Below, piece after piece: positions 5,455 to 64,000 of a stretch of DNA of 64,000 nt (positions are counted from its first letter, which is position 1; each line of letters begins with the position of its first letter). The position numbers were made by a program, and so were the translations under genes. Source of the stretch: Pseudomonadales bacterium (lineage in GTDB: Bacteria; Pseudomonadota; Gammaproteobacteria; Pseudomonadales; JANQJO01); the NCBI GenBank assembly GCA_028281605.1, contig JANQJO010000060.1, positions 5-64,004 on the forward strand, given 5' to 3'. Under the pieces are notes generated by a model. That model worked only from the letters and a program-made list of their open reading frames with translations. It was not told where the DNA came from and made no database searches.

Positions 5455-5528
5455 CTCTTTTACCCTATGTTGCCAAAACAGTAATTTAAAAGTATAGTCT
5501 TACGCCTGTAGTATTTTAAGGTACAGTA

Positions 5529-5906: not shown

Positions 5907-5953
5907 TGATACGCATAGTTTGAGTCACAACTAAACTGTCGCAAGATTCGTTT

Positions 5954-6406: not shown

Positions 6407-6416
6407 AGCTTTAGGG

Positions 6417-37293: not shown

Positions 37294-37439
37294 GGTGCAG
37301 CCCTCTTCTTTAGGTTGGAGCAAACCAGGGTCACTGGGTACTGGAATATAAAGAGAGGGTTATTTTACTGTATTTTTATCAATCTACCTATACTTTTAAT
37401 ATATTCAATCAGTATTACGTGAAAATGGAGAGATTGATT

Positions 37440-37540
37440 AGGAACGTGCATGAAATAATTTTAGCATTTGTTGCTCCTGAACTCGCTTTGCTCAAACATG
37501 CATCTGCTCTAAATGTTAAAATTATTTTGTGCACGTTACT
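37440..37540 (+). repeat. 101-bp hairpin repeat, copy 2
   Basis: 30-bp arms with 4 mismatches, 3 of them G-T. Conserved centre TGCTCCTGAACTCGCTTTGCTCAAACATGCATCTGCTC. It ends on the first base of the usp stop codon. Confidence 0.85.
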
Positions 37541-38472
37541 CACTTTATGGGCGATTCAAATCCGCTTGGTTTAAGTGTGATGACCGATGAATCTATTAAA
37601 TGCAAAATAGACTCCGCAGTGTTTCCAATTAATAAGCCAGGGATTCCACTGCGTGCAACGGTGCCCATCACGACAACGTCAATTGTTTTCTTGCGCACAA
37701 AGATAGGTATATGATCGACTGGATTACCTTTAATCAAGTGGCTGTGTATCTTATGTCCCTCATAGCAGGCTATTAATTCATCGAGATGAGTGCGATTGGC
37801 TTGTTCTTCTTCTTTTAATAGTGTGGTAAGTTTGTTTTCTGAAATTTTTAAAAAAGCACTGTAGCGCATGGCATTTTCAGAATATAGAGACCAGCAGGAT
37901 AATACATGTAATTCGCTATTTTCCCATTTTGCTAAGGATGTGGCTAAATCCATAATGAGTGCATTCAATGCTTTTCCTTCTTCATAACTGTCTAAGCCTA
38001 GGTCAACAGCTGCCAAAATTTTTTGAGAGTGACCCTGATCTTTTGATCTGAGCAACCATACAGGTTGAGGGCATTTACGCATCAAGTGAAAGTCACTGCT
38101 GTCAAAACTATCGGGATGATCATTGGCTACCTTGATCAGCAGATCATGTTTTTCCAAAATGACTTGACGTACGATTTCAATGAAATCCCGCCCGATTGCG
38201 ACTTTTACATTGACGTGAATCGTGTTACCCAGCTGTTCAGTAATTTTCTCAAGGACTTCCTCTCTTTGGGTGACTAGCATTGTGATCAGTTCCTCTGGCT
38301 TTATGATGCCTTTATACTCTGAGATTGTTTCTTTCGGAGGGCTAATTACATCCATAAGTGTCAGACGTGCATTGTTTTTTTTCGCGAGTGCCACACCTCG
38401 GGCAAGTGCTGGATTGTTTTCTGGATGCTCGTCATCACTGACAATGATTAAGATATTTTTAAAGCGTTGCAT
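37540..38472 (-). CDS. tandem-domain universal stress protein (UspE-like)
   Basis: Two USP domains, the second ending VVMGTVARSGIPGLLIGNTAE. ATG at 38472 lies after AGGAG. Confidence 0.8.
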   Translation of the reverse strand: MQRFKNILIIVSDDEHPENNPALARGVALAKKNNARLTLMDVISPPKETISEYKGIIKPEELITMLVTQREEVLEKITEQLGNTIHVNVKVAIGRDFIEIVRQVILEKHDLLIKVANDHPDSFDSSDFHLMRKCPQPVWLLRSKDQGHSQKILAAVDLGLDSYEEGKALNALIMDLATSLAKWENSELHVLSCWSLYSENAMRYSAFLKISENKLTTLLKEEEQANRTHLDELIACYEGHKIHSHLIKGNPVDHIPIFVRKKTIDVVVMGTVARSGIPGLLIGNTAESILHLIDSSVITLKPSGFESPIK

Positions 38473-49919: not shown

Positions 49920-50363
49920 ATGCAAAGCGAGTATAGAAAGTGTTTTACCTTGTTGATGGCTGTTGCTATGTTGTTTTCAATGGTTCCGGTTTATGCTCAA
50001 CAAGATATAAGAAGTGCGTGTATTGCGCATAAAAAAAGCACTACTGGTACAGATAATGGACTTTGCCAAAGTTACGTGGGTGGATTTCTAGACGGGGCTC
50101 TGCTGACTGATACTGCGATCATCGATAATTTTATCAATGAGAAATCCAGTTTTTTTCAGCGTGCTTATCAAACAAGAGCTGCGAAAGTTCGAAAACCTTT
50201 GCCGGCTACCTATTTAGCTAAATTTTGTTTGCCTCAATCTGAAACATTTCCCAAAATTGTTGACACCATTATTGAAAATTTGGATAGCTCTTTGCTTGAG
50301 TTGAAACCACTCAACCATGTGACCTATGAAACAATTAAGCGCATATATCCATGTGAGGAGTAG
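49920..50363 (+). CDS. hypothetical periplasmic protein (147 aa, five Cys)
   Basis: Signal peptide LLMAVAMLFSMVPVYAQQ. No domain recognised. Confidence 0.55.
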   Translation: MQSEYRKCFTLLMAVAMLFSMVPVYAQQDIRSACIAHKKSTTGTDNGLCQSYVGGFLDGALLTDTAIIDNFINEKSSFFQRAYQTRAAKVRKPLPATYLAKFCLPQSETFPKIVDTIIENLDSSLLELKPLNHVTYETIKRIYPCEE

Positions 50364-50679: not shown

Positions 50680-51819
50680 TTACTTTTTCTCTGCTTCATT
50701 AATGACCCATTGATAATCGCCAACAGTTGTATGCAAGGTTGTGAGTGTTTTTTCTGTCATGCGTCTTTTTCTGATATTTAAAACAATATTAATGGCTTGG
50801 TGTAACATGTATGGAATGATATTTTGCTCCACAGGATCTCCCATGCGTAACCCGGGTCCCTTTTGTATTTCTGTCATAAAAGGTTGTAAATTTTCATCTA
50901 CCAGAAAATCAGCTCCATATACACCAAAGCAATCGCCTTGTTTGGGGTAATCTTGCAGTAATCTGGATTTACCTGCTTGGACAACGTGGGCTATGTATTG
51001 ACGAATCTTTGGCATCAACTGGTTTTGGCAAAACCCAAGTTCTGTTATGTTGGCTTCGTAAAGGTATTGATCGAGTTCGCTATAAGACCATTTATAACGT
51101 AGTGATGAATCAAATTCTGGATGCATTTTTTGTTGGTAATAATTAGTCATGTGTACCAAAGGGTTATCGAAGTCTTCATTTTTATAGGGCATTGCGGTTA
51201 ATCGTACTTTTCCTTGTGGGTAGAGCAATACCAGAAGTGGATCAATGCTGGCCAGTAACCAATAAACGCGAATGTCGAACTTTCTGTTGTGTATTAATAA
51301 AGGATTTTTAAGATAACGTTGAATCACCCGGTTTGCATCGTCATCATAATGACCCGGTGGGTAGAAATTGTTTGCTGCCAGCTGTCGGGTTTGCCAAAGA
51401 ATTTGGATGCCACGACCACGAGAATTGCCGCCAGGTTTGTAAATCCATGTGTTTTCTGGATCTTCTGTTTGAGGTTGTTGCTGCATAAAAGCATGTTGTT
51501 CTTTAGTATCATTCAAACAGTATGTTTCAGGAAAAAAGTCGTGCATGGAAATGCTTTTATCGGTGCTATAGATGTGATTCTTCTCATAGTGTTTGAGCGC
51601 TTCAGTGATGTGTCCTTTATTGGTGAGAATATTTTCATGAATAAAATGATTGAGTAGTTGAAAGGGTTGTAATGATTTTGCGTATTGTTTGGATTCCTTT
51701 CTGACCCATAATAAGTCAGCTTTTTCTGCACTACTTACCAAGTCAAAATCATAGTGAGTAAATATTCGAATGGCATTTTTAGAGCGTTTATCGGTGAAAA
51801 TTTTACTCTGTGGGTTCAT
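50680..51819 (-). CDS. tubulin-tyrosine-ligase-like (TTL family) ATP-grasp protein
   Basis: TTL-type blocks: QLLNHF..LTNK, WIYKPGGNSRGRGIQIL, RVIQRYLKNPLLIHNRKFDIRVYWLL, CFGVYGADFLVDENLQPFMTEIQKGPGL. ATG at 51819 lies after AAGGAC. Confidence 0.8.
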   Translation of the reverse strand: MNPQSKIFTDKRSKNAIRIFTHYDFDLVSSAEKADLLWVRKESKQYAKSLQPFQLLNHFIHENILTNKGHITEALKHYEKNHIYSTDKSISMHDFFPETYCLNDTKEQHAFMQQQPQTEDPENTWIYKPGGNSRGRGIQILWQTRQLAANNFYPPGHYDDDANRVIQRYLKNPLLIHNRKFDIRVYWLLASIDPLLVLLYPQGKVRLTAMPYKNEDFDNPLVHMTNYYQQKMHPEFDSSLRYKWSYSELDQYLYEANITELGFCQNQLMPKIRQYIAHVVQAGKSRLLQDYPKQGDCFGVYGADFLVDENLQPFMTEIQKGPGLRMGDPVEQNIIPYMLHQAINIVLNIRKRRMTEKTLTTLHTTVGDYQWVINEAEKK

Positions 51820-51910
51820 AATGTCCTTTAAGATATAAATAGATAGCAAGCAGAATACTAATAATAGATGCGAGAAAACCTATTAGTTGTAGAAAATCAT
51901 TCAATTTCTG

Positions 51911-52489
51911 CTAGCTCCTTGCCCGAGAAATCTGAAGAATTATGCAGATTGCGCCTACAACCAATGCAATGACTGTGGATTTGAGAACTATTAGGCCAAC
52001 AATTGAGATTATGCTACCTAAATACATGGGATGCCTAATAAATGAATATATTCCCGATGATACAAAATATTTTGCTTGAGGCGTTATGCTAAAGGCAGTT
52101 CTCAGATTGGCAAGCGAGAAAAGCGAAATTGTAATTCCTATTCCTAATACAATTAATGGCACTCCGATGTAAGTTGCTAGAATATCAGCTGCTGGTAGCA
52201 ATAGAAATGGTAGAAAGGAACCAAAAAGCGCAATAACATTTGGAAAAAACTCTAAAAATCTTCGTTTTATTGGGCCTGATAGCAGAAGAATAATTGCTGC
52301 TAGCAAAAAGTAAACAGCTGTTATCCCGTTATTAATTAGCGCATTAACAATGATAAAGGTTCCATCAACGCCCTTGACCTTTTGAAGGGTAGAAAAGCCT
52401 TCTTGGAGATTGGAAAGATAGTAAATTGAGGTACAGCTTAATATCGAGCTGATTAAATACGACTCGTATTTAAAAAATCTATTTAGCAC
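51911..52489 (-). CDS. isoprenylcysteine carboxyl methyltransferase (ICMT/Ste14/PEMT) family membrane protein
   Basis: Polytopic protein with C-terminal GIYSFIRHPMYLGSIISIVGL. GTG start after AAGGAC. Confidence 0.72.
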   Translation of the reverse strand: MLNRFFKYESYLISSILSCTSIYYLSNLQEGFSTLQKVKGVDGTFIIVNALINNGITAVYFLLAAIILLLSGPIKRRFLEFFPNVIALFGSFLPFLLLPAADILATYIGVPLIVLGIGITISLFSLANLRTAFSITPQAKYFVSSGIYSFIRHPMYLGSIISIVGLIVLKSTVIALVVGAICIILQISRARS

Positions 52490-52585
52490 AGTAAAGTCCT
52501 TGTTTTTTTGTTCATGCTAGTCCCTGATTCTTCTATTGAGAAATTACAACTTGCCTATCCCGTCATCGCGTATATAATATTGTTA

Positions 52586-52780
52586 TTAGGCGGAGTCCCC
52601 TGATACTTGTTGAAATGAAAGCTCCTTGATATTTGCATGTTCTATTGTAATATCAACCAAACTCCCATTTGCATCAAGATCGATATAAATGTTTTCGTTG
52701 ATTTCCTTAGTTTCATGCACTGATTGCTCAGAAAACTCTATTAAGGCAGTATCAGTATCCTCAAAGTATTTAATTTTCAC
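52586..52780 (-). CDS. DUF2283-like small protein (putative antitoxin)
   Basis: (M)KIKYFEDTDTALIEF...DLDANGSLVDITIEHA is a paralogue pattern of the ORF at 57379-57606. GTG start after AAGGAG. Confidence 0.6.
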   Translation of the reverse strand: MKIKYFEDTDTALIEFSEQSVHETKEINENIYIDLDANGSLVDITIEHANIKELSFQQVSGDSA

Positions 52781-52784
52781 TTAT

Positions 52785-52966
52785 TCACTCCTTAAAATTT
52801 CTATCAAAGAAAGCATTATGAACCGTCAAACCATCTTCAAGAAGGCGACCATCGCTTTGGACAAGTGACTGTACAGGGCAATTAACTGCTTGCTCAATCC
52901 ACTCCAGCTCTATGTCCGACCTGTCTTTTTTTGTCTTGTATGTAGAAAGTACTGAGTAAATTTCAC
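52785..52966 (-). pseudogene. DUF4258-like gene interrupted by a frameshift at an A7 run
   Basis: Two reading frames (VKFTQYFLHTRQKK.. then ..IELEWIEQAVNCPVQSLVQSDGRLLEDG..) join if the run at 52926-52932 changes length by one base. Same position relative to DUF2283 as 57590-57829. Confidence 0.4.
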
Positions 52967-52998
52967 GTTTCTCTTTACACCTAATGTTTTCTGTTGTC

Positions 52999-53097
52999 GT
53001 CTAACGCCGTTGTAAATTGCAGTTTTGGAGTTGCTACCTTTGTGCCACTAAGTACAAAAGGAGCGATGGAAAAACTGTCGATTTGACGACCTTAGTT
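52999..53097 (-). repeat. attC-like site (slightly degenerate)
   Basis: + strand GTCTAAC at 52999-53005. The arms CTAACGCCGTTGTAAATTGCAGTTTT and AAAACTGTCGATTTGACGACCTTAG pair imperfectly. Confidence 0.55.
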
Positions 53098-53121
53098 ATT
53101 TCTATGCATATGTTTCTTAGT

Positions 53122-53328
53122 TTAGCTAAACATTGGATAATCTGGATCTCCCTCCATACTTTGTTTCGTATTAGGATTAACCCAGTTAGAATACAATCCG
53201 TGTAGCTGTCCATTGGATATATTATCACAGGCTTCCTTTAGTTTTTCTGTGGTTTCTCTGATACGACTTGCACCGAAAAGCAAAATCCATAACCCACCAT
53301 AACCTCGGATAAAATTAACTCTCATCAC
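53122..53328 (-). CDS. doubtful 68-aa ORF
   Basis: Open frame only. It sits between a mazF 3-prime remnant and an attC, and no similarity was recognised. Confidence 0.2.
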   Translation of the reverse strand: MMRVNFIRGYGGLWILLFGASRIRETTEKLKEACDNISNGQLHGLYSNWVNPNTKQSMEGDPDYPMFS

Positions 53329-53332
53329 TTAA

Positions 53333-53374
53333 CAACAACTCAACCACAACCCATACAAACCTGCTCTAACTTCT
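53333..53374 (-). pseudogene. 42-nt remnant of a mazF-like 3-prime end
   Basis: About 86% identical to 56755-56795 (the C-terminal coding part of the mazF-like gene). The frame is broken. Confidence 0.6.
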
Positions 53375-53385
53375 GATAATTTTTA

Positions 53386-53790
53386 TTATGAGTTTCCAAT
53401 ATCTTGCTCTTCGGCATATTGAGCATATAGTAAATCAGCAAAATCCTGCTCATCAAGCTCATTAAGAACTAAGTCTCTAACCGCATCTGCAAGCAGTTCG
53501 TTATCACAGATTAGCTCATAATCATTTAGCGACAGATACTCTAACGCTACTGCAAGCCCTGTTCGCTTATTAGCATCTGGTAATGCGTGAGCAATAGCTA
53601 TACAAGATGCATATTTTGCAGCTATCTCGAAGACATCATTTAGACTTGAGTAAACAATCGCATTATCAATCCTTCCAAGTGCGCTTTGTAATTTGCCGAC
53701 ATCAACGGAGCCCTTCATCCCGGGTTCATGTTCTAAAATAAATGCGTTAATCTCAATGACTCTTTCAAATGGAAATTGAATCACATCCAT
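53386..53790 (-). CDS. doc: Fic/Doc-family toxin (death-on-curing)
   Basis: Fic motif variant HALPDANKRTG. Size is 134 aa. Confidence 0.85.
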   Translation of the reverse strand: MDVIQFPFERVIEINAFILEHEPGMKGSVDVGKLQSALGRIDNAIVYSSLNDVFEIAAKYASCIAIAHALPDANKRTGLAVALEYLSLNDYELICDNELLADAVRDLVLNELDEQDFADLLYAQYAEEQDIGNS

Positions 53791-53960
53791 TACATATCTG
53801 CCAATTTTTCAAATGTTTTTTTGTGCGTTCTTAATGCAAGCTTAGTTTCAGATTTTACAATTTGTTGCCCATGCACTCCAGATAAGTCTAACTTTTTATT
53901 TGCAGCAATCTTCGGCCTTTTTACTGCTTTTACGCCATATTTTTCAATTTTTTTGTTCAT
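53790..53960 (-). CDS. unannotated 56-aa ORF, putative Doc antitoxin
   Basis: MNKKIEKYGVKAVKRPKIAANKKLDLSGVHGQQIVKSETKLALRTHKKTFEKLADM. Its TAA overlaps the doc ATG (ATGTAATGG). It is below the ORF-track size cutoff. Confidence 0.5.
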   Translation of the reverse strand: MNKKIEKYGVKAVKRPKIAANKKLDLSGVHGQQIVKSETKLALRTHKKTFEKLADM

Positions 53961-54039
53961 ATCGACTCACTTAATTACAAATCACTTACATCTTGAACTA
54001 AAATTGCACATACTTACAATACTACCTAACACCTTCTTA

Positions 54040-54222
54040 CTAATCGTCTTCGCGCCACATTCTGCTATATAGAACATGCGTTAATGATACGAAAATTACC
54101 CCTAACGCAAGGATAAGCACTATGCTGATTATGGAAATCTCGTTTATCGAATATAGCCAATATAGAAAAGCAGCCAGGATGAGTATGAAAATTGAGCTAA
54201 TAGTGATTGATCGAAGGTTCAT
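54040..54222 (-). CDS. small two-TM membrane protein (possible immunity protein)
   Basis: MNLRSITISSIFILILAAFLYWLY..IISIVLILALGVIFVSL. Lies immediately downstream of the glycine-rich peptide gene. Confidence 0.45.
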   Translation of the reverse strand: MNLRSITISSIFILILAAFLYWLYSINEISIISIVLILALGVIFVSLTHVLYSRMWREDD

Positions 54223-54224
54223 CG

Positions 54225-54442
54225 CTACTTCCAAAAAGAGTCAAAAGCGACTTCTGCGCCGATGGCTAACATGAGACCACCCACAAACACACCGATACCA
54301 ACATAAACAGGAGCCCCTGGGCCACAGGCAAAACCTGCTGTAGCACCACCCGCCACAGAACCTAGCAAACTGCCACACTAAATGCTGCGCCTTCCATACC
54401 AGCTAGTGCAGATTGCAAATCTAGCATTTCATTACTTTCCAT
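54225..54442 (-). pseudogene. glycine-rich hydrophobic peptide gene (class II bacteriocin/microcin-like) split by a -1 frame change
   Basis: GGAG then ATG at 54442 gives MESNEMLDLQSALAGMEGAAFSVAVC, stopping at 54362. The -1 frame continues GSLLGSVAGGATAGFACGPGAPVYVGIGVFVGGLMLAIGAEVAFDSFWK. Confidence 0.4.
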
Positions 54443-54470
54443 TTATGACTCCTTTGTTTTTGGCATTTAG

Positions 54471-54548
54471 GTATAACGCCGCAATCACGGGTGCCATAAC
54501 CAGAGCGAAGCGGCGGTTATGGCATCCCTGTGTATTGCTTTGTTATGC
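54471..54548 (-). repeat. attC site (conserved family)
   Basis: GTATAAC...GTTATGC with paired arms GCCATAACC and GGTTATGGC. About 80-85% identical to the sites at 57308 and 60769. Confidence 0.8.
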
Positions 54549-54601
54549 TTTTCGCCGTATAATTGTACATAAGATCTGTACAAGTCATTATAAGGTGTAA
54601 T

Positions 54602-54832
54602 ATGGAAAATGTAAATATAACCGAACTTAGGGCTAACTTATTAAAATACTTAAAAAAAGCTCAATCAGGAGAGCAAATATTAATCACTTCCGGAGGGCAG
54701 GTGCTTGCAACTCTTGTGGCACCGATTGACCTTCGTAGGTCCTCCAAAAGAAAATTGAAACAGCTATCAAAAGCAGCCATTTTAAGAGATGTAATATCGC
54801 CTACTGAAGAAACATGGAACGCTGCTCAATGA
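54602..54832 (+). CDS. Phd/YefM-family antitoxin
   Basis: MENVNITELRANLLKYLKKAQSGEQILITSGGQVLATLV. Confidence 0.8.
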   Translation: MENVNITELRANLLKYLKKAQSGEQILITSGGQVLATLVAPIDLRRSSKRKLKQLSKAAILRDVISPTEETWNAAQ

Positions 54833-55224
54833 TACTACTTGATACATGCACCATAGTTTGGGACGCTTTGTCACCTAAAGATATAACTTCAAAAGCAAGG
54901 ACCACAATTGAAAACGCCGATAAAGAGAACTCCCTTTTAGTTTGTGATATTTCTTTTTGGGAAATATCAATGCTTATAAAACGCGGAAGAATAGAAATTG
55001 AGACTAATGCAACGGAATTAATTAATCTCTACCTATCATCAAGAAATATTCAAGTACAAAACATATCACCTGAAATTGCCGAGCTTTCCGTAAACTTAGG
55101 TGCGGAAATTAATAAAGATCCGGCCGATCGTCTAATATCCGCAACTTCGATTATTAGGAATGCAAGACTCGTAACTGCAGATGAAAATCTACGAAATGCT
55201 GAAATCCTTGATACCATTTGGTAA
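54829..55224 (+). CDS. vapC: PIN-domain toxin VapC
   Basis: MILLDTCTIVW..., ...DPADRLISATS..LVTADENL. ATGA overlap with the antitoxin. This is the only cassette oriented on the + strand. Confidence 0.85.
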   Translation: MILLDTCTIVWDALSPKDITSKARTTIENADKENSLLVCDISFWEISMLIKRGRIEIETNATELINLYLSSRNIQVQNISPEIAELSVNLGAEINKDPADRLISATSIIRNARLVTADENLRNAEILDTIW

Positions 55225-55327
55225 GCATAACGCCCGGCTCAGCGAGCAAATTTTGCTGGCAGTGGTTTTGCCGCACAGCGCAAAAGCGGTGACAGTAAAA
55301 TTTGTCCGTTGCAGCCGTTTGTTAGTC
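55225..55327 (-). repeat. attC site
   Basis: GCATAAC...GTTAGTC. It starts directly after the vapC stop. Confidence 0.7.
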
Positions 55328-55413
55328 CAAAACTCGCTCAATGTCTCTACTTAGAGATACGAAAACCTCTTCTGCCTCTTGTTTCTTCAATTTCGATAGT
55401 GGCTTATTAGGAG

Positions 55414-55548
55414 AATTAACCGCTTGAAAAACTCCACGTCGCGTTCACCCGCACCTAAAGTGGAGCACCTTTTGTGTTAAAGTGAAGCGAAGCGGAACAC
55501 ACAAAAGGCGCGGAGCTTTGGGTGTCGGCGTGCAGCGCTTTGTTAGCT
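55414..55548 (-). repeat. attC site (long, 135 bp)
   Basis: AATTAAC...GTTAGCT with inner paired blocks GCACCTTTTGTGTT and AACACACAAAAGGCGC. Confidence 0.6.
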
Positions 55549-55770
55549 TTGGCCTGGTAAAGAACCGTATTCTTTTTTAAATTCAATTTTTATATATTCT
55601 AGGAGCCCTTCAAGATTCTGCTGATCTGTATAAAGGTCAGCCATAACATCTTCATCGGTGGAATCTGGATCAGTTGATTCTATTTCTTTTAACCTTGATG
55701 TAATAGATTCGATAATCAAAGCCCAATCACCCATTGTCATTGGAATAGATAAGCTATCTAGTTTATTCAT
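55543..55770 (-). CDS. acidic 75-aa protein, Tsi2-like putative immunity protein
   Basis: Helical acidic protein ending ..EYGSLPGQS. Size, charge and position after the toxin resemble Tsi2 as I remember it. Its stop lies inside the attC. Confidence 0.5.
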   Translation of the reverse strand: MNKLDSLSIPMTMGDWALIIESITSRLKEIESTDPDSTDEDVMADLYTDQQNLEGLLEYIKIEFKKEYGSLPGQS

Positions 55771-55780
55771 TCTTTTCTCC

Positions 55781-56158
55781 TTAACTAACTTTTTTGCAGT
55801 AAACTGCTAATTCTTGTAACAACCCGAGATACTTTGTAAAAGGCATATTTGAAACTGGCGCGATCATGAAGTGATTAGCTCTGCCGGGGCGCAGGTCTTT
55901 TACCAACCGGAGTCCTGTTGGAATAGGCGTATTTCTCGCCAACTTCCAAGTATTGCGTTTATTTGGATCAAATGTTGATGAAAGAGAAACACCATTGCCA
56001 TTTGCAACTACTATTTCAATTCCATTTACCTTGTTAACCGCCACATCTTTAAATGCCCTTACATGATCGAGACGGGGCTGAGAGGAATTCCCAAATCGGT
56101 AAAGGTCAAGCAAAATGAAATCTGCTTCTTCAATGTACAAAAATTCCGGTCTTATCAT
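55781..56158 (-). CDS. Tse2-like putative toxin (125 aa)
   Basis: NGNGVSLSS...W.L...TPIPTGLRLVKD....ANHFMIAPVSNMPF..YLGLLQEL parallels the C-terminal half of P. aeruginosa Tse2 (..GGTSVF..IPDGTDIPPDLKV.QD...ATHYTIMPAKPM..), recalled from memory. Confidence 0.5.
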   Translation of the reverse strand: MIRPEFLYIEEADFILLDLYRFGNSSQPRLDHVRAFKDVAVNKVNGIEIVVANGNGVSLSSTFDPNKRNTWKLARNTPIPTGLRLVKDLRPGRANHFMIAPVSNMPFTKYLGLLQELAVYCKKVS

Positions 56159-56180
56159 TTCTTCTTCCTATATGTTTGAA

Positions 56181-56297
56181 TTAAAAGCTAACATAACGAC
56201 AAATTCCTATACCACTCTCTTGCTGTTCATAAAACTCTCGCCCACTAACCATATCTCCCACAGCTTCTTCTAATACTACTACATCTTCAATCTTCAT
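56181..56297 (-). pseudogene. RelE/ParE-family toxin gene truncated to 38 codons at a bare GTTAGC core site
   Basis: MKIEDVVVLEEAVGDMVSGREFYEQQESGIGICRYVSF stop. ATGA overlap with the upstream antitoxin. GCTAAC lies at 56187-56192 on the + strand. Confidence 0.5.
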
Positions 56298-56500
56298 GAC
56301 TTATAATACTCGCGAAGTTTATCAAGAGGTATAAAATTAGCCTCACCACTCTCGATTTTTCTTTTACGAACAGCTAATACATCAGTATGCCAATCAGGGG
56401 AGCTTATCTCAGAATCTTCATTTATCAAAGAACCCCACAGAGCCTCCATGGTTCTCAGCTTTTCTACAACACTCATATTTTCTATCTCACTGTTTTTCAT
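56294..56500 (-). CDS. addiction-module antitoxin component (TIGR02574/Unstab_antitox-like)
   Basis: MSVVEKLRTMEALWGSL....WHTDVLAVRKRKIESGEANFIP. Confidence 0.7.
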   Translation of the reverse strand: MKNSEIENMSVVEKLRTMEALWGSLINEDSEISSPDWHTDVLAVRKRKIESGEANFIPLDKLREYYKS

Positions 56501-56533
56501 ATCTAGTTTCTCCTAATTCTGATTTTTGCGTGA

Positions 56534-56658
56534 TGCTAACGCCCTAATAACTGGCCCAAAAAACCTTCCAGAGCCTACCCAAGAACTCCGTACTATCAGC
56601 AACCCCATTCTCAAAAGAACCCAAGGTTTTTTGGGTCCAGTTCATTAGTTGGTTATAT
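56534..56658 (-). repeat. attC site
   Basis: TGCTAAC...GTTATAT with arms CTGGCCCAAAAAACC and GGTTTTTTGGGTCCAG. Confidence 0.65.
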
Positions 56659-56730
56659 GGCACGGCCTCTTCTATCCAACTGCCTATTACTTATCAGTTT
56701 AGACAGACTATCAGAAGCCCCGAATAAAAA

Positions 56731-57079
56731 TTAAGCACCATCGCCTCCGCCTCGCAACAACTCAATCACAGCTACACGAACCTGCTCTAACTTCTCCTTT
56801 GTCACATCACCTACAATACGCTGAAACAACGATTGATTTGCTGTAAACAAATTTTCCAGGCCTAACATAACTCACTCTTTTCAAGCTACCTGACTGAAGA
56901 TCTACATCACTTACTTCTATTGCCGATGTATCAGAGTAAGGGTTACTGGTAATTTGTACACAAACCCAATCCCCACGACCAGAACATGCTAGAACCAGAG
57001 CCGGCCTTAACTTTGAAGCCGACAAATCAGAAAATGGAAAAGGAACCAGCACCACCGCACCTATTGAAGGTGTGACCAT
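56731..57079 (-). pseudogene. mazF: MazF/PemK-family toxin gene with a frameshift near 56850-56862
   Basis: The N-terminal part, VVLVPFPFSDLSASKLRPALVL...VRPGK, runs into a stop at 56807. Another frame continues ENLFTANQSLFQRIVGDVTKEKLEQVRVAVIELLRGG to the stop at 56731. Confidence 0.7.
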
Positions 57080-57270
57080 GCCTCATCCTCCTCTGGCTTT
57101 AACCAATCTGTTGATAAACTAGACTCAGACAGCAATGCTGTCTCAAGTGCTTCAAGCGGTGGCTCTTCAAGAATAGTGACCAATGCACGACGTACACCTT
57201 TCACTTTAAGTGGCTCCGCTAAATGAATCTGGCCTTTTTCATCAACCGTAGCTTCCACTGTACGTATCAT
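57061..57270 (-). CDS. small antitoxin-like protein upstream of mazF
   Basis: MIRTVEATVDEKGQIHLAEPLKVKGVRRALVTILEE. ATG at 57270 lies 8 nt after GAGGA. It overlaps the mazF start. Confidence 0.65.
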   Translation of the reverse strand: MIRTVEATVDEKGQIHLAEPLKVKGVRRALVTILEEPPLEALETALLSESSLSTDWLKPEEDEAWSHLQ

Positions 57271-57307
57271 TTTCAAATCCTCACTATATTTTCACTACTC
57301 AGATGCC

Positions 57308-57384
57308 TTATAACGCCGCTATCACAGGTGCCATAGCCGTAGCGAAGCGGAGGTTATGGCATCCTGTGGATAGCTTTGTTAGGC
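57308..57384 (-). repeat. attC site (conserved family)
   Basis: TTATAAC...GTTAGGC. The stop codon of the 57379 ORF lies inside it. Confidence 0.8.
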
Positions 57385-57606
57385 CATTCCTTTTTTCAAT
57401 ATTCCTTGGTCCAACTCAAGGGTATAGGACAGTATCGTATCAAGATTAATCCTATCTGATGCTTTGAGTATTTCTATTCCTACAAGTTTTCCGTCATTAG
57501 TGGTATCAATATTGATGCCTTCTGTTATTTCTATGGCACCCTCTGGTTCTTGATCACTTAGTTTTAAATACAAAGCATCAACTTCTTCATCATAATGTAC
57601 TTTCAT
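57379..57606 (-). CDS. DUF2283-family protein (putative antitoxin)
   Basis: MKVHYDEEVDALYLKLSD...DGKLVGIEILKAS. Confidence 0.7.
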   Translation of the reverse strand: MKVHYDEEVDALYLKLSDQEPEGAIEITEGINIDTTNDGKLVGIEILKASDRINLDTILSYTLELDQGILKKGMA

Positions 57607-57829
57607 TTTTTCTTCCTTTTTTCAGGGGGTAATTTGTAATCACAGTAATGGTATCACTTTCAACAGACATAACTACCTTTAAAGGATATTGAAAACCAGA
57701 TACCTCTCTTATAATTTCGTGTTCTCCATCCGCCAGATCTAAAGTACTTAATATATCTTCAATAGTAGATTGACTAATTTTATAAAGCTTTGCTCTTCTT
57801 TTTGCATGTCTTGAAAATTTTATTATCAC
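57590..57829 (-). CDS. DUF4258-family protein (putative toxin)
   Basis: (M)IIKFSRHAKRRAKLYKISQSTIEDIL. GTG start. It overlaps the DUF2283 gene by 17 nt. Confidence 0.65.
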   Translation of the reverse strand: MIIKFSRHAKRRAKLYKISQSTIEDILSTLDLADGEHEIIREVSGFQYPLKVVMSVESDTITVITNYPLKKGRKNESTL

Positions 57830-57874
57830 TTTACCTTATCTCTTAAATAGAGTTGTATCTTTGGAACTTTCTCG

Positions 57875-57952
57875 GCCTAACGCCCGCCACAACGGCGCGA
57901 GCTTGCGAGCGTCCGGCAGCCGAAGGCTGCGAATTGCTGGCGTTTGTTATAC
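57875..57952 (-). repeat. attC site
   Basis: GCCTAAC...GTTATAC. The stop codon of the TIR-like gene lies inside it. Confidence 0.75.
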
Positions 57953-58810
57953 GTGGGCATCACTTCTGAAGCCATCCATGTAATAAATATCATTGTGGCT
58001 CCACTTATCGATACCGTACACCTTGACTCCAGTGGCCACGATGAGAGATATCGAACTAGCTCCATGTAAGGGAGGTATGACGACATCCCTATCTACGAAA
58101 TATACGTCATGATCTCGAATTTTTACCTCTTTTAGATAGCTTTCCTTTGCACCATCTTCCCAAGCCTTAATTTCCGCTGGTGTTGCTGGCTTAGCAAAGG
58201 AAAAGAAATGGTGCTTTATAGATTCTAGAAGAGACTGAGATTGTTCGTTCGCCCTTTGAATATCATGATTCATACTCCAGATTTTTGATTGCGCATTGTG
58301 TAATTGCTGCCTTAATATTTCTGCTTCGCTGGTAGTTTCTCTTTTATTTTTTGATGCTTCTAACTTTTTAACGGACTGCTTTATTTTTGCACAACTTCCA
58401 GTTACTGCATCAGTTAAGTCAAGGTCTTGATCATCGTAGAAAGATGCGGTCACTCCGGCCAAATCTGTTGGTAAACGGAATGTGGTTCCAGCCGACTTAG
58501 GAACAAGAATAAAGCACTTTTCTAAACCAAGAGCACCAATGAACATACCCAGCTCTAGGACTACGTTGTCCCTAACAGAGCTGTACTCTTTTTCTCGTAT
58601 TAGAGTTTTATCGTCCGCATGGAAAACAAAAACCGCGTAATCAGCCTCTTTCGTTTTACCAATGAGAGTCGTAATAGCGATGGAAGACAAGTCGAAAGCA
58701 TTTTCCCAGAGCTTTACTCTCATTTCTTGCTCAAGCTTAATATGTACAGCTTCGGCAACTGATATAGCTTCAGATGAGGATGCTATAAATACTGATGGCT
58801 TATCACTCAT
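57947..58810 (-). CDS. TIR-like (COG4271/PF10137, Cap12/Pycsar-effector type) domain protein with coiled coil and unknown C-terminal domain, 287 aa
   Basis: KPSVFIASSSEAISVAEAVHIKLEQ..DYAVFVFHADD..RDNVVLELGMFIGALGLEKCFILVP..LPTDLAGVT. ATG at 58810 chosen, because the track TTG at 58909 lies inside the attC. Confidence 0.7.
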   Translation of the reverse strand: MSDKPSVFIASSSEAISVAEAVHIKLEQEMRVKLWENAFDLSSIAITTLIGKTKEADYAVFVFHADDKTLIREKEYSSVRDNVVLELGMFIGALGLEKCFILVPKSAGTTFRLPTDLAGVTASFYDDQDLDLTDAVTGSCAKIKQSVKKLEASKNKRETTSEAEILRQQLHNAQSKIWSMNHDIQRANEQSQSLLESIKHHFFSFAKPATPAEIKAWEDGAKESYLKEVKIRDHDVYFVDRDVVIPPLHGASSISLIVATGVKVYGIDKWSHNDIYYMDGFRSDAHV

Positions 58811-58836
58811 ATTTGTTTCCTTGCACGAATTTAAGC

Positions 58837-58908
58837 GTATAACGCTAAGCTCACCGGCGCTGATGTAGCGTAGCGGAATCGGCGTCCGAGTGCAGCGAAT
58901 TGTTAGCA
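58837..58908 (-). repeat. attC site
   Basis: GTATAAC...GTTAGCA. Confidence 0.75.
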
Positions 58909-59057
58909 ATATTATTGGGTTTTCGACGAACTAACCGATCGCCTACCTGAGTCTGATGGGTTTGATAGTCTTTACATATGGCATCAAGATCATAATTAAA
59001 TTGCTTGGAATGTTCGTCTCGGTAATATCTAATTTCTTCTACAATGGGATCTTTCAT
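58851..59057 (-). CDS. small protein downstream of the PIN gene (68 aa, C-terminus runs into attC)
   Basis: MKDPIVEEIRYYRDEHSKQFNYDLDAICKDYQ.... ATGA overlap with the PIN gene stop. Confidence 0.5.
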   Translation of the reverse strand: MKDPIVEEIRYYRDEHSKQFNYDLDAICKDYQTHQTQVGDRLVRRKPNNIANNSLHSDADSATLHQRR

Positions 59058-59530
59058 ACTTCATCTCCTAAGAACTCTTCTGGTGAACATATTTCTGGAC
59101 ATATCCAACCCCGACTTTCTATTATTTGCCTTATTTTCTTTCTTGTAAATGGGTTGTTTATGTGCTTGAAATTCCAAGTTACAATGACGTCCATTCCATT
59201 GGCTGCTGCAACTGCAATGTGTAGTGCGTCTTCAGGGCACTTTTCGGGAATTGCCTTATCAGTAAGTAACTGTTTAGCAAGTTCTTTTATTTCATCATCG
59301 ATTGCTAGCACCTGAAATTCGTCCAGCATTTCACGACGAAGTTTTGCTTGGACTTCATCGCCTTTTGATGCTTCTTGAATAACGATATCTGAAATAAATA
59401 CGCTATAGTCATTAAGATGATTCCAGAAATCCTGTGTAGATGCCTGATGAGCTGCAACTACAATGTTTTTCGATGGTCTTGCCACCAAATAACTAACAAC
59501 ACTGGTTTCTATGTATATATTTTGTCCCAT
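59054..59530 (-). CDS. PIN-domain protein (VapC-like)
   Basis: IYIETSVVSYL, ..ISDIVIQEA.., PEDALHIAVAAANGMDVIVTWNFKHI. Confidence 0.78.
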   Translation of the reverse strand: MGQNIYIETSVVSYLVARPSKNIVVAAHQASTQDFWNHLNDYSVFISDIVIQEASKGDEVQAKLRREMLDEFQVLAIDDEIKELAKQLLTDKAIPEKCPEDALHIAVAAANGMDVIVTWNFKHINNPFTRKKIRQIIESRGWICPEICSPEEFLGDEV

Positions 59531-59561
59531 TTGTTTATCGACTCAATGTAATTATTAGTGC

Positions 59562-60728
59562 TTATCTTGGCTCCGGTTTTTCAAATATGAAACGTGCTGA
59601 AAAAGGGCCTCGCCTGATTACCGGAGCACTTCCAAACAATGTAAAGTTCCATGGTTGTTCTATAAAACCTACTTCTGTAAATTTCTCAATCAACAGTTCC
59701 GCTGGCATATAAGAGTATGAAAAGGGCATACTTTCTCTTCGATTCAGAACATAATGCCCCCAATAGTCTTCTAGAGCTAGAACCTCAGCTTGTTCCTCAC
59801 AAGAAAGATCTAGATAATCGTTACTTATCGAAAAACAATCTTTTTTCCAAGGGCCATCAGGCCATATATCAGCAAATTCAAATCTTCTACTTACCTCGGT
59901 AAGCATCTGTCTATAAGTAAGGTGTGGAACGTCTCCATCACTATCCGTCGGTGCTTTGTGGTTACTCAAAAAGCCTTCTATAATGATTGCTACTCCACCA
60001 GGACGAAGAATTCTAAATATATTAACTATTTGTTTTTCCATTTGCCCTCGAGTCATGTGGTGAAGGCACCACTTTGTTACCACAACATCCCTAGAGTTGT
60101 CTTCTATGGGAACTTGAGAGGGGGTAGGTTGTATTCTATAATCTAACCGATCCTTATACTTTTCATCAGCTTCATGCCAATCATGAACATCAGTACCAAT
60201 AACTGTTACATCTTTTGAACCATATTGTGCATTCTGTAAATTTTCTATCCAGTTTAGATATGAAGCTTTGTCTGATACATTGTGAAAGTAGTCTAAAATT
60301 GCCTTGCCTAATTTATTTCTTCCAGCGCCTATATCGGCGATATCTAAGTACTGGTGTTCAGGGTGAATATAAAATAAGGGCTTTATTAATTTTAAATCCG
60401 AAGCATACAAAGCAATTTCGTTATAACTGTCTTCTACCGCTATATGATCGGCTAAATGATTTCCATGAGGTAACATTTCTTTCCAAAACTCCTCACACAC
60501 CTGATCAAGATCGTCGTCAATTCTATTTAGAATAAATTCAACTTCTCTTTGAGCCTTTTCGAGTGGGGAAATCTTTTTAGAGAAATATGTGAAGTAACTT
60601 GGTATGTTTGGCAGACGATAGTAGTCACTCAATATATCGGTTCGGTAGCGATGAGCTAACATCCTAATAAAGAGATTGGATACTTTATCATTTCTCAAAA
60701 TTTCTAAAGGGTTGCTTATGTTCCACAT
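59562..60728 (-). CDS. class I SAM-dependent methyltransferase-fold protein with unknown N- and C-terminal regions (388 aa)
   Basis: Motif I LDIADIGAGRNKLG, post-I VTVIGTDV, motif II DVVVTKWCLHHM, motif III LRPGGVAIIIEGF. No DPPY/NPPY-type DNA methyltransferase motif seen. Confidence 0.65.
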   Translation of the reverse strand: MWNISNPLEILRNDKVSNLFIRMLAHRYRTDILSDYYRLPNIPSYFTYFSKKISPLEKAQREVEFILNRIDDDLDQVCEEFWKEMLPHGNHLADHIAVEDSYNEIALYASDLKLIKPLFYIHPEHQYLDIADIGAGRNKLGKAILDYFHNVSDKASYLNWIENLQNAQYGSKDVTVIGTDVHDWHEADEKYKDRLDYRIQPTPSQVPIEDNSRDVVVTKWCLHHMTRGQMEKQIVNIFRILRPGGVAIIIEGFLSNHKAPTDSDGDVPHLTYRQMLTEVSRRFEFADIWPDGPWKKDCFSISNDYLDLSCEEQAEVLALEDYWGHYVLNRRESMPFSYSYMPAELLIEKFTEVGFIEQPWNFTLFGSAPVIRRGPFSARFIFEKPEPR

Positions 60729-60768
60729 ATTTATCGACCTTTAATTAGTACGAGAAATCGGCTTTGGG

Positions 60769-60845
60769 TGCTAACGCCGCCATCACAGGTGCCATAACCA
60801 AGGCGAAGCGACGGTTATGGTATCCTGTGGATGGCATTGTTAGCA
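60769..60845 (-). repeat. attC site (conserved family)
   Basis: TGCTAAC...GTTAGCA. The 354-aa ORF stops inside it at 60815. Confidence 0.8.
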
Positions 60846-61879
60846 TTTACCCGATAATTCATAACCTGACGATAATGCAGGCATTTGGTACTCTCTTCCT
60901 CTAAGAACACTTGATTTTCCACGTCAGGAAAACATTGCACAACACCTCGATGTCTAAATATCTCATCAGACAATGGATATCTAGCAAAAGGGTTATGGTA
61001 AACTTGTAAGCCATCCGTCAAACTTTCTTCGTGTTGATTTCTGGAACGAATTCGCTTTTCAGGTTTCCCATTCGGATCTGTTGCCCAGATTGAATATATT
61101 TCGGTGTGCACATCAGCATTGTCAACTATCGCGTTCAGTTTACCCCACGTAGCAGTACAACTAAATATAATCGCGCTTATTTGAGATAAAGAGTCATCCA
61201 TAAATATTCCTAGTGGAATCTCTGCTCCATTGTCTTTCTCTATAAAACCAAGTTCTTTAGCCGGAGGGCCTTCAGGATATCGTTCGGGATTTTTTAAATA
61301 TTCATCCTCATCGACATAGTAATCATACAATAGTGCCTTTATGGGTCGGTTGTATTGAAGATTGAACCCAGGTTGTTCAAATGGAGCGACAGCTATAACA
61401 AAAGCTTTATTTTTTACATGGTTTAACCTTGAGTATTTCTCATCATAAATTCTACATTTACTCAAAATACTATTTGATAAACGGATAATTGATTCCTTAT
61501 TCAGCTCATTAAATGAGATATCTTTGAGTTCTTCCTTTGTTAACATTCGATCCCATTCATTTGGTTTTAATTGTGCTGAATTGGCAGTAACGGCCTCAAC
61601 CAGAAATTGCTGATTTTTTAACTCCATACAAAAATCAGGTGAAGTATTTTTCCAATCAAAAATGGCTCCATATTCTTTGAAAACTGCATACAAGTATATT
61701 TCCCAAAAACACGAGTTGAATGTTTCTTGAAACTGTCTTACAAATTTACCATCTCGATCAGGAAACCCATCTGCCCACTCAATAAATTTGTTTCTTTCAG
61801 GCTCTTTCCAAGTAGCCAATACAGACTTGAAATTCTTGTGCTGCTTAGCAGTGTCAATTACAGGGTCAAAAAGCTTCAC
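60815..61879 (-). CDS. uncharacterised 354-aa cassette protein (possible PD-(D/E)xK-like N-terminal core)
   Basis: GTG start after GGAGG. FWEIYLYAVFKEYG ... SPDFCMELKNQQFLVEAVTAN is loosely nuclease-fold-like. Nothing else recognised. Confidence 0.55.
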   Translation of the reverse strand: MKLFDPVIDTAKQHKNFKSVLATWKEPERNKFIEWADGFPDRDGKFVRQFQETFNSCFWEIYLYAVFKEYGAIFDWKNTSPDFCMELKNQQFLVEAVTANSAQLKPNEWDRMLTKEELKDISFNELNKESIIRLSNSILSKCRIYDEKYSRLNHVKNKAFVIAVAPFEQPGFNLQYNRPIKALLYDYYVDEDEYLKNPERYPEGPPAKELGFIEKDNGAEIPLGIFMDDSLSQISAIIFSCTATWGKLNAIVDNADVHTEIYSIWATDPNGKPEKRIRSRNQHEESLTDGLQVYHNPFARYPLSDEIFRHRGVVQCFPDVENQVFLEEESTKCLHYRQVMNYRVNANNAIHRIP

Positions 61880-61899
61880 AACACCTCCAGTAGATAGAT

Positions 61900-61905
61900 G
61901 CTAAC
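61900..61905 (-). other. bare GCTAAC (GTTAGC) core junction upstream of the first cassette
   Basis: Same hexamer as the cassette-proximal end of the attC sites at 56535 and 60770, and of the bare junction at 56187. No convincing partner arm lies to the right. Confidence 0.45.
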
Positions 61906-62385
61906 ATTGTTCTTAGACAGAAAAATTCCGTGTTTAAACACAGATTTTTTCCATATAATATTCCAAATCTACAGCCAACAACTCTCTAAAAAAACTTAAA
62001 CCTCAACTAAGTAATGCCAAAACAATATAAGAAATTCGCTCTCTTGTCGTACCTCTTACTTGGACAATATCATCTACTGACTAGCTTTTATATACGGCTC
62101 CGGCCCATGGCTTATAAGAAGCCACTTATTTAAGATACCATGATTTCGACTTATCAACCAACATTGCATTTGTGCTCGAGAAGCCAAAGGATAAAAACAG
62201 TGTAGAGTTACCCTTAGCTCCAGAATTGGGGTCAGCAATCCAAATTCAATGAGCTGTAGTTTAAGATGGGATTGGACAACATCGACTCGTTAGTAAGGGA
62301 ATTACTACGAGCTGTTTGAATCTCCCCTCAAGTCAACAGAGGGTTTGGGCTTGAGATTGTCAAATATTCTGTTTAAAAAATTGAT

Positions 62386-63999
62386 TTAATTACTTTCGCT
62401 CATGCTGTAATCATAGCGCTTCATAGCGCAACGAGCGAGTGCATTGATGGGTTCATCGATGCGGACGTATCCTTGAACTTCCATTGCCATGCCTTGGATA
62501 ATTTCGTCCATTGCATCTAAAAACCGTTCTCGGCCTTGCGCGATGGCACTGTCTAGAAAGGCTTGCCCAGGGTAAAGTTCAGCGATTCTGGCTTGTTCGG
62601 CCTCATCGAAACGATTCGGGTTTTCTGCAACGAATGGCGTTAATTCATCGATCATATACTTCATGCCATCTTTATGGCAATCCATGCAAGAAGCACCATT
62701 GATCAACCTAAGATCGCCTTCTCCTGAAACACGATCATTACACGGTCCTCCCCTAGAAGGGTCGCATACAACAAAAGTAAACGCGTCCAGACGACGTTGA
62801 TTGAAGGCGCCTGCAATATAATAGCCGTCCATACCATTGGGCATTTCAAAAATAATTTCTGCGGCTGAGCCTGGTACTCGAATGGGTTGGCTGAGTTCTT
62901 GATCAAAACCTAAAATAGGATTGGAAAATAGGTTAGGGTTGAGAAAGGCAAAGGCATCCATAGAGCGCCAATATTGTCGGCCGTCTTCGGTTTTGGCTAA
63001 CCAAACAATTCGGTCGTTTTCATTGATTGAAATTTTATTTTTGACGGTAAAGAATTTATAAGAATCAATGCCATCATTTTTGACCACTTTGAGCTGGCTT
63101 TCCAAAGTACTGGCAAAACGAGGCAGTTCCATGATCCTGTTATAGACTCTGGGTCGGCTTATGTTATAAGCTAATTGGCATGCATCAATATAATCGTTAG
63201 AGAGGCCTTTTTGAAAATTACTGCTAACACCTTGACGTATACGTTCCCAGACTTCAGTGGATTCTAGAGTGTTATTCTCCCAATAGTTTCTAATATCGAT
63301 ACGATAAATTAACTTTAAATTTTCAATTGGGGTTGGGTTAACAATTGTTGGTGCGTAACGTGCGACGGCATTTAAGGCTTTGGATAGGCCAATACGATGC
63401 AGCTCCAGTTCCGCTGTGTTGGCGCCTTCGTTATAGGCTTGATGTAAAGAAATATAAGCCGCAAAGGCTTGGTCTTCCAGCGGCAGACTATTACGATTGT
63501 TGATAATTAATTCACCCAGAGTCTCTTCGTTGAAAGGGGCTTCTAATCCAGGTTGCTTGGCCGCGGGTACTTGTGCCGTTTCAGCCCATTGAGCGATAGC
63601 TTGCTGCATTAAAATTGCGCTATCGGCACAATTGAGCCCTTCAAAGCAGTTGTGCCGATCTACTGCAAGTCTGGCGACTAGGCGTGATTGTGTGGGATTT
63701 TGCAAAAATACCAGCTTGTTGGCTAGAGTGTGTGCTAAATTTGAGTCGAGATCCGAGTGTAGAGGCGGGATGCCTTGGGTATCGGAGCTGTGGCAGGCCG
63801 CACAGTTTTCACGTAAAGTTGGGTAAAGAGTTTGTTTGAATGCGGTTAAGGAGGTTTGGCTCGGGTACATGGTATTTTGTCCTGAGCTGACTCGTTCACT
63901 GACTAAGCCGCTTTCAGATGTAGGAAAGCCATTGCTACCACAACCACTCAAAATAATTGTAAATAGGATTGTTATAAGTGATAGAGTTGTTTTAGTCAA
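62386..63999 (-). CDS. putative lipoprotein with two CxxCH haem-binding motifs (c-type cytochrome-like), possibly 5-prime incomplete
   Basis: Lipobox ILSGCGS. CAACH and CMDCH motifs. The ORF starts at a TTG one base before the window end. Confidence 0.6.
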   Translation of the reverse strand: MTKTTLSLITILFTIILSGCGSNGFPTSESGLVSERVSSGQNTMYPSQTSLTAFKQTLYPTLRENCAACHSSDTQGIPPLHSDLDSNLAHTLANKLVFLQNPTQSRLVARLAVDRHNCFEGLNCADSAILMQQAIAQWAETAQVPAAKQPGLEAPFNEETLGELIINNRNSLPLEDQAFAAYISLHQAYNEGANTAELELHRIGLSKALNAVARYAPTIVNPTPIENLKLIYRIDIRNYWENNTLESTEVWERIRQGVSSNFQKGLSNDYIDACQLAYNISRPRVYNRIMELPRFASTLESQLKVVKNDGIDSYKFFTVKNKISINENDRIVWLAKTEDGRQYWRSMDAFAFLNPNLFSNPILGFDQELSQPIRVPGSAAEIIFEMPNGMDGYYIAGAFNQRRLDAFTFVVCDPSRGGPCNDRVSGEGDLRLINGASCMDCHKDGMKYMIDELTPFVAENPNRFDEAEQARIAELYPGQAFLDSAIAQGRERFLDAMDEIIQGMAMEVQGYVRIDEPINALARCAMKRYDYSMSESN

Positions 64000-64000
64000 T

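Follow-up and report, generated by a model that had tools for sequence, protein, structure and literature searches.

In a 64,000-nucleotide stretch of DNA from a Pseudomonadales bacterium (contig JANQJO010000060.1 of assembly GCA_028281605.1; hereafter the window), we identified at positions 52500–61905 an integrase-less integron array, chromosomal and made up of about eleven gene cassettes, a reading to which we assign a probability of roughly 0.9. The array is ~9.4 kb long, its attC recombination sites share one strand and its cassette genes are unrelated to antibiotic resistance: they comprise toxin–antitoxin pairs, a PD-T7-5 homologue, a TIR effector-like protein and a methyltransferase. 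An earlier note, made from the sequence alone, had proposed an integrase-less cassette array at this position. That reading stood on every testable point; the published category to which the array belongs and its visible decay went unmentioned there and are added here.

The category is that of attC-site clusters without an integron-integrase (CALINs), defined as at least two clustered attC sites with no intI nearby (PMC4889954). Complete genomes held 279 of them (PMC4889954), and a later tally reached 2961 across 21,105 genomes (bioRxiv 10.1101/2022.09.11.507474). Here nine attC sites, all on the plus strand, follow one another at less than 4 kb (widest gap 1.86 kb, 58908 to 60769), and Pfam, tblastn and six-frame checks found no intI near the cluster. 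In a complete or sedentary integron the array adjoins intI, which encodes a tyrosine recombinase with an additional IntI-specific domain. Because no intI adjoins the array, we do not file it as such an integron. It is a CALIN, a documented kind of element and not a new type, and it opens no new question, as CALINs already number in thousands. What it adds is a well-resolved example from a gammaproteobacterial lineage without a close sequenced relative, in which intact sites, mutated sites, and fused and truncated cassettes stand side by side and illustrate array decay after integrase loss.

A class 1 integron model recovers all nine attC sites

The covariance-model check that the earlier note had proposed was run with a home-built model, R1, trained solely on eight bona fide attC sites of class 1 integrons from plasmids (arr-3, dfrA5, blaVIM-2, aadB, aadA2, aacA4, dfrA12 and aac(6')-29a), which were aligned as bottom strands; the model has 16 base pairs, spanning the R and L boxes. 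The class 1 integrons were found via the IntI1 protein, eight loci (L082–L089) were fetched and the inter-cassette sequence was read in six. R1 was searched against the whole window with filters off and recovered the nine sites at 13–42 bits (Table 1), with E-values that are rough since calibration was shortened. All nine are among its ten best matches, every one on the plus strand; the remaining match, at 14 bits, is the minus-strand echo of the 60769 site. The best match off the array (12.2 bits, E = 1 for the window) ranks below all nine.

In a control of 1.2 Mb of unrelated genomes, R1 gave just three matches. The two strongest, L060 4472–4540 (31 bits) and L007 18556–18630 (21 bits), show the canonical ends TAACG...TTGTTA and are probably real attC sites in those genomes, a metagenome-assembled genome and a single-cell genome. 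Judged by sequence and predicted fold, all nine proposed sites in the window are genuine attC-type recombination sites.

Other approaches were less useful. Generic AAC...GTT hairpin scans were unspecific and missed sites with unpaired outer R-box bases, a state expected after cassette shuffling. When five window sites were aligned with MAFFT (A1), one was placed wrongly, and no model was built from this alignment. An Rfam scan of the window at gathering thresholds returned RNase P RNA alone, and Rfam has no attC family. Additional attC sites were sought in 52490–52600, 54010–54100, 56160–56300 and 61880–61990, where nothing folds better than shuffled sequence.

The sites have the architecture of attC bottom strands

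All nine sites lie at or near the coordinates first proposed for them and fold as long imperfect single-stranded DNA hairpins (−12.5 to −29 kcal/mol). Known attC sites are imperfect hairpins of 57–141 bp whose L boxes pair, whose central spacer does not and whose terminal structure varies; the window sites agree with this, at 72–125 nt. Two limits required correction. Site 1 ends at 53101 (GTTATTT) and not at 53097; the site said to begin at 55414 is real, but its hairpin starts at ~55431 with an inner heptamer, ACTCCAC, that has no AAC, and the AATTAAC assigned to it lies 17 nt outside the hairpin. Apart from this site (55431–55548, R' = ACTCCAC), the sites (8/9) read nnnTAAC...GTTAnnn, and the TAAC/GTTA core is invariant in the site alignment. 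The L-box helix is 97.5% paired over the nine sites, with compensatory double changes in six of nine pairs, in an alignment that was fitted to the model, which favours structure. The outer three R-box pairs are frequently unpaired, as expected because a crossover between TAA and C takes those bases from the neighbouring cassette.

In characterised attC sites, the bottom strand has 5'-RYYYAAC-3' in R' and 5'-GTTRRRY-3' in R'', and its extrahelical bases (G16, T20 and T23/24, with 6-bp spacing) lie on the arm opposite AAC (PMC5027507). In agreement, the bulges of the window sites, counted from the plus-strand 3' end, lie at 16 (at 17 in a single site), 20 and 23/24 on the arm opposite AAC, and the first bulge and the distal T are both present in seven of the nine. 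The register, in which a 5-bp stem comes after a 3-nt spacer, is the same as in the arr-3, dfrA5 and VIM-2 sites. Because the bulged bases oppose the AAC triplet (PMC5027507), the plus strand is predicted to be the recombining bottom strand, as the earlier note had argued; consistent with this, the 60769 site scores 42 bits on the plus strand vs 14 on the minus. The note's placement of the integrase-proximal end at the right (61905) also agrees with our data, because on the minus strand the sites contain the ends of the cassette ORFs. The three conserved sites (54471, 57308 and 60769), described as about 80–85% identical, are 81–86% identical in pairwise comparison, the other sites compared being at 56–63%. 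We infer that an integron integrase would recombine the sites while they are folded as single strands.

These features also bear on whether the repeats belong to an integron at all. They could instead be palindromes resembling repetitive extragenic palindromic (REP) sequences or miniature inverted-repeat transposable elements (MITEs), or terminators between small genes, a reading that is effectively refuted. The window does hold an unrelated palindrome family (2043–2146 and 37438–37541), and the generic AAC...GTT scan also catches other hairpins, yet R1 finds the best sites at E of about 1e-8 to 1e-7 while other palindromes reach 12 bits. Moreover, the bulges occupy canonical positions, the nine sites all share one strand, their sequences diverge (56–63% identity) with pairing kept by compensatory changes, and homologous genes are attC-flanked cassettes elsewhere.

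Cassette content and decay of the array

Cutting the array between TAA and C gave about eleven cassettes (Table 1). Of about 22 ORFs, two are encoded by the plus strand, in agreement with the minus-strand bias reported before, and the five stop codons said to lie inside downstream sites are all there.

Table 1. Features of the cassette array and its right end. R1 E-values (whole window) are approximate; cassettes are numbered from the right, and the attC sites, in the order listed, belong to cassettes 10, 9, 8, 7, 5, 4, 3, 2 and 1.
Feature	Positions	Strand	R1 (bits)	R1 E-value	Bulged bases	Fold (kcal/mol)	Content or remark
attC	52999–53101	+	18.0	0.035	G17, T24		
attC	54471–54548	+	40.3	7e-8	T16, T20, T24		
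attC	55225–55327	+	13.6	0.46	first bulge alone	−29.0	
attC	55431–55548	+	13.0	0.66	C16, C20, T24		R1 match 55430–55548
attC	56534–56658	+	15.4	0.16	C16, T23	−18.2	
attC	57308–57384	+	42.2	2e-8	G16, T23		
attC	57875–57952	+	15.0	0.2	first bulge alone (C16)	−18.5	Branched tip
attC	58837–58908	+	39.2	1e-7	C16, A20, T24		R1 match 58837–58907
attC	60769–60845	+	42.3	2e-8	G16, T23	−23.6	
Cassette 1	60775–61904	−					1130 bp; ORF 60815–61879, 354 aa, PD-T7-5 anti-phage homologue
Cassette 2	58843–60774	−					1932 bp; S-adenosylmethionine methyltransferase-like 59562–60728, PIN 59054–59530, 68-aa ORF 58851–59057 (Pfam)
Cassette 3	57881–58842	−					962 bp; ORF 57947–58810, 287 aa, N-terminal TIR, Cap12/PycTIR effector type
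Cassette 4	57314–57880	−					567 bp; DUF4258 (57590–57829) and DUF2283 (57379–57606) toxin–antitoxin pair (Pfam)
Cassette 5	56540–57313	−					774 bp; RelN-like antitoxin 57061–57276 (NCBIfam), PemK/MazF toxin 56731–57079
Cassette 6 (truncated)	56186–56539	−					Antitoxin 56294–56500 (PF09720), 38-aa toxin stub 56181–56297; no attC
Cassette 7	55437–56185	−					Tse2-like ADP-ribosyltransferase 55781–56158 (PF18648, E = 3e-6), 75-aa ORF 55543–55770
Cassette 8	55231–55436						About 206 bp; no ORF; attC 55225–55327
Cassette 9	54477–55230	+					754 bp; Phd/YefM antitoxin 54604–54832, PIN/VapC toxin 54814–55224 (Pfam)
Cassette 10 (composite)	53005–54476	−					1472 bp; in minus-strand order, two small ORFs, 56-aa ORF 53790–53960 (partner of Doc), Doc/Fic 53386–53790 (PF02661), MazF relic, 68-aa ORF
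Cassette 11	about 52500–53004	−					DUF4258-like ORF, DUF2283 52586–52780 (PF10049); terminal attC unrecognisable
Array-proximal junction	61899–61905	+					TGCTAAC (GTTAGCA on cassette strand); bare R' half-site
Possible attI-like simple site	61906–61925	+					ATTGTTCTTAGAC..., directly beside junction
Terminator-like hairpin and T run	61927–61944	−					Consensus scan; ~20 nt upstream of cassette 1

The gene of cassette 1 is preceded by a leader of 25 nt that contains the ribosome-binding site GGAGG. Its product matches the PADLOC PD-T7-5 profile over its full length (E = 5.8e-123; residues 1–342 on profile positions 1–341 of 346) and is, by this match, a homologue of the PD-T7-5 anti-phage system. 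The protein of cassette 3 matches Pfam PF10137 (E = 1.9e-25) and the PADLOC TIR effector (E = 6e-39), and its NCBIfam Cap12 match is under the curated cut-off. In this array, PD-T7-5, a validated single-gene anti-phage family, and a TIR effector-like gene travel as predicted integron cassettes, in keeping with the view that integron arrays are banks of defence genes; their defence and toxin–antitoxin content has already been described (bioRxiv 10.1101/2024.07.02.601719; PMC12614218).

Several cassettes show signs of decay. A 1-nt frameshift, located in an A4T3 run, divides the PemK/MazF toxin of cassette 5, and the merged protein matches PF02452 at 29.2 bits (cut-off 23.1). The toxin stub of cassette 6 terminates at the bare junction AGCTAAC (56186–56192); a ParE label for this stub had no Pfam support and remains an inference. 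The attC of cassette 7 (55431–55548) has a degenerate R' box lacking AAC. At the left end, the DUF4258-like ORF of cassette 11 (52783–52990) is apparently frameshifted in an A7 run, and a search of 52490–52600 for a terminal attC found no hairpin. Cassette 10 retains a MazF C-terminus relic at about 53329–53380, seen in translations, and the genes of cassette 9 are inverted relative to the remaining array. With intact sites and genes mixed among damaged ones, local integrase maintenance has probably stopped or is rare.

The right end carries a possible attI-like junction and no integrase

The two bare junctions of the earlier note exist (56186–56192 and 61899–61905), and neither flank folds as a hairpin. 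To the right of 61899–61905 we found no attC hairpin (61880–61990, z = −1.0) and no R1 match. The sequence across this junction, TGCTAAC followed by ATTGTTCTTAGAC (61899–61925), resembles the attI1 junction of three class 1 integrons (...TAAC followed by TTTGTTTTAGGGC), attI sites being integrase-specific. From this resemblance, 61906–61925 is possibly a former attI.

The claim that no tyrosine recombinase is encoded in the window was borne out: essentially every window ORF of at least 100 aa is without PF00589 in Pfam searches. Searching the window and an independent 10.7-kb Logan contig (L001) with IntI1 by tblastn gave noise (best E = 0.47). An intI remnant was also sought in the 480-bp gap at 61906–62385, which has stops in all six frames, and a six-frame Pfam search of 61880–62400 gave no match. 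L001 extends the right end by a further 4 kb, where gcvH, gcvPA and gcvPB lie and no integrase was found, and Pfam scans of the window ORFs found no insertion sequence (IS) element or transposase near the array.

On a rival reading, neither an intI nor a true attI was ever present at this locus. A trans-acting integrase could have put the first cassette into a chromosomal GTT site (attG), with further cassettes added at its attC. Insertion at attG has been shown experimentally and proposed for small CALINs and for single attC sites lacking integron-integrases (SALINs) (bioRxiv 10.1101/2022.09.11.507474); 61899–61905 is a bare half-site beside non-coding DNA, where an intI pseudogene has left no trace, and a PD-T7-5 homologue in Rheinheimera soli (below) has a single weak attC-like match. 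However, this route is proposed mainly for one or two cassettes, whereas the array has about eleven in one orientation with a homogeneous attC subfamily, and its junction resembles the attI1 core, a better fit to a former attI. We therefore consider such an origin unlikely.

Several points weigh against the array being an integrase-less integron remnant as described. Taken singly, five of the nine sites are weak (E = 0.035–0.66 for the whole window) and are convincing solely through position, strand and architecture. The absence of an integrase covers the readable 68 kb, and a trans-acting intI may lie elsewhere in the genome. A crude scan of the minus strand at 61700–62500 found no sigma-70-like promoter into the array, and the terminator-like hairpin stands just upstream. 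Both frameshifts coincide with A/T homopolymer runs and may reflect sequencing errors instead of pseudogenes. Finally, we found no close relative in which the cassettes of the locus could be compared: GcvPA relatives are ≤62% identical and none is syntenic.

A PD-T7-5 homologue is attC-flanked in another array

For the cassette 1 protein, 575 homologues reach E ≤1e-20. Its closest relative (65% identity) is encoded in a contig (ENA ERZ27262665, contig k141_517381; L091) as a single gene between attC matches at 2440–2526 (43 bits) and 3586–3706 (23 bits). Because this homologue is bracketed by attC, the PD-T7-5 gene is predicted to move as a cassette, at the level of the gene family. The L091 locus (1455–7032) is a second integrase-less array, with five attC matches and different neighbours, and it also carries a TIR gene of the ThsB type and a GTPase-like one. 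In Rheinheimera soli (GCA_021290985.1, L095 10001–11122), a 54%-identical PD-T7-5 homologue lies among core genes and is followed by one weak attC-like match (19.5 bits, E = 0.017); it may be an isolated cassette, i.e. a SALIN.

Proposed origin of the array

Published origins of CALINs are intI loss, rearrangement away from intI, secondary-site insertion and cassette genesis. We favour a former or split sedentary integron, because the array is long and oriented, its attC subfamily is homogeneous and its junction is attI-like. Its likeliest origin would be the loss of intI from, or its separation from, a once complete sedentary chromosomal integron. An integron integrase would have built the array through recombination between attC sites folded as single strands, with the crossover between TAA and C on the plus strand (between G and TTA on the cassette strand). 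Given this crossover and a plus-strand bottom strand, the newest cassette would be the rightmost, and the cassette genes would read leftwards. The array, with its self-stabilising toxin–antitoxin modules, would now be a passive cassette store. Where the attC sites are well preserved, in four or five cassettes, excision and movement may still be possible, but by an integrase in trans alone, encoded elsewhere in the genome or on an incoming mobile integron; the remaining cassettes would be frozen in place and decaying.

The independent contig L001, from a Logan assembly of the same organism, is 100% identical to the window over 57355–64000, reaches position 68076 and ends at 57355, inside the conserved attC at 57308–57384. 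The break suggests extra copies of this attC repeat that disrupted short-read assembly, and copies elsewhere would fit a split integron, in which intI and attI moved to another part of the genome, or one integrase serves several arrays, and the cassettes are still shuffled in trans. We regard this as a tentative possibility. Four attC sites are well preserved and three are 81–86% identical, which is typical of upkeep by a single integrase, and about half of CALINs share a replicon with IntI (PMC4889954). Strong upkeep is argued against by the lost AAC, the truncated cassette, the fused cassettes and the missing terminal attC; moreover, no IS or transposase was found flanking the array, and the evidence is confined to the readable DNA, the remaining genome being unseen.

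More speculatively, the array could be a working satellite platform, with an attI-like dock (61899–61925) and no integrase of its own, loaded and unloaded by a foreign or distant integrase. We think this improbable; if true, an uncultured gammaproteobacterial lineage would donate anti-phage cassettes (PD-T7-5, TIR effector) to mobile integrons.

Relatives of the locus were scarce, and the host lineage is thinly sampled. GcvPA, encoded to the right, is at most 62% identical to any Genome Taxonomy Database (GTDB) species representative, and its top matches are uncultured Gammaproteobacteria. For the 556-aa protein flanking the array, no relative was found in genome contigs and three were found among 5.8 billion proteins; downstream of the nearest (57% identity, L090), the genes are unrelated and there is no attC. 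Two metagenome scans with patterns of the conserved attC subfamily found nothing.

Comparison with known integron elements

Like CALINs as described in 2016 (PMC4889954), the array has at least two same-strand attC sites less than 4 kb apart, no nearby intI or recognisable pseudogene, non-resistance cassettes and no flanking IS. It is larger than most of them, with nine attC sites and about eleven cassettes, and its lineage has no close sequenced relative. With sedentary chromosomal integrons, for example the superintegron of Vibrio cholerae, it shares a position among core chromosomal genes, an attC subfamily >80% identical, many toxin–antitoxin cassettes (one inverted), anti-phage cassettes and three-bulge attC sites like VCR2 (16, 20, 24). 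In contrast to these integrons, it has no intI and no demonstrable attI or cassette promoter (Pc), measures ~9.4 kb and is clearly decaying.

The class 1 attC sites (arr-3, dfrA5, blaVIM-2) have the same order of R box, 3-nt spacer, 5-bp stem, bulge, 6-bp stem and T bulge, and share the motifs TAACGCC..., a GCGAAGCG-type tip and ...TTTGTTA. This likeness is one of architecture and consensus, not of recent common descent; unlike class 1 integrons, the array has cassette genes unrelated to resistance and no Tn402/Tn21 context. Cassettes of the SALIN or attG-inserted kind (bioRxiv 10.1101/2022.09.11.507474) likewise sit in an integrase-free chromosome with a bare half-site as first junction, but hold one or very few attC sites, whereas the array is long, oriented and multi-cassette.

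Neighbouring genes and other features of the window

The window is ordinary chromosome with ~42% G+C. It holds proS, RNase P RNA, sulfite reductase, an exopolysaccharide cluster, the conserved block lpxB-lpxA-fabZ-lpxD-skp-bamA-rseP-dxr-cdsA-uppS, an Mrp antiporter, a P-type ATPase, a LysR regulator and a hibernation factor. Housekeeping genes flank the array on both sides: on the left, a PEMT-like gene (51911–52489) with a tubulin-tyrosine-ligase (TTL)-family gene to its left, and on the right the gene for the 556-aa protein (62386–64056) and then gcvH/gcvP.

Three further features were observed. Just left of the array lie genes for a TTL-family protein (50680–51849; PF03133, E = 2e-50) and a Rap1a-like immunity protein (49920–50363), which are unusual accessory genes for a bacterial chromosome. 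The palindrome at 2043–2146 and 37438–37541 is intergenic and ~105 bp long, and its two copies are mutually inverted (TTAGGAACGTGCATGAAATAA...TTATTTCATGCACGTTCC); the first folds at −34 kcal/mol, and the element is REP- or MITE-like, not an attC (R1 12 bits). Lastly, a 643-aa ORF (33748–35679) of ~35% G+C, with a weak match to tetratricopeptide repeats (TPR) alone, lies between dxr and cdsA in the otherwise conserved block.

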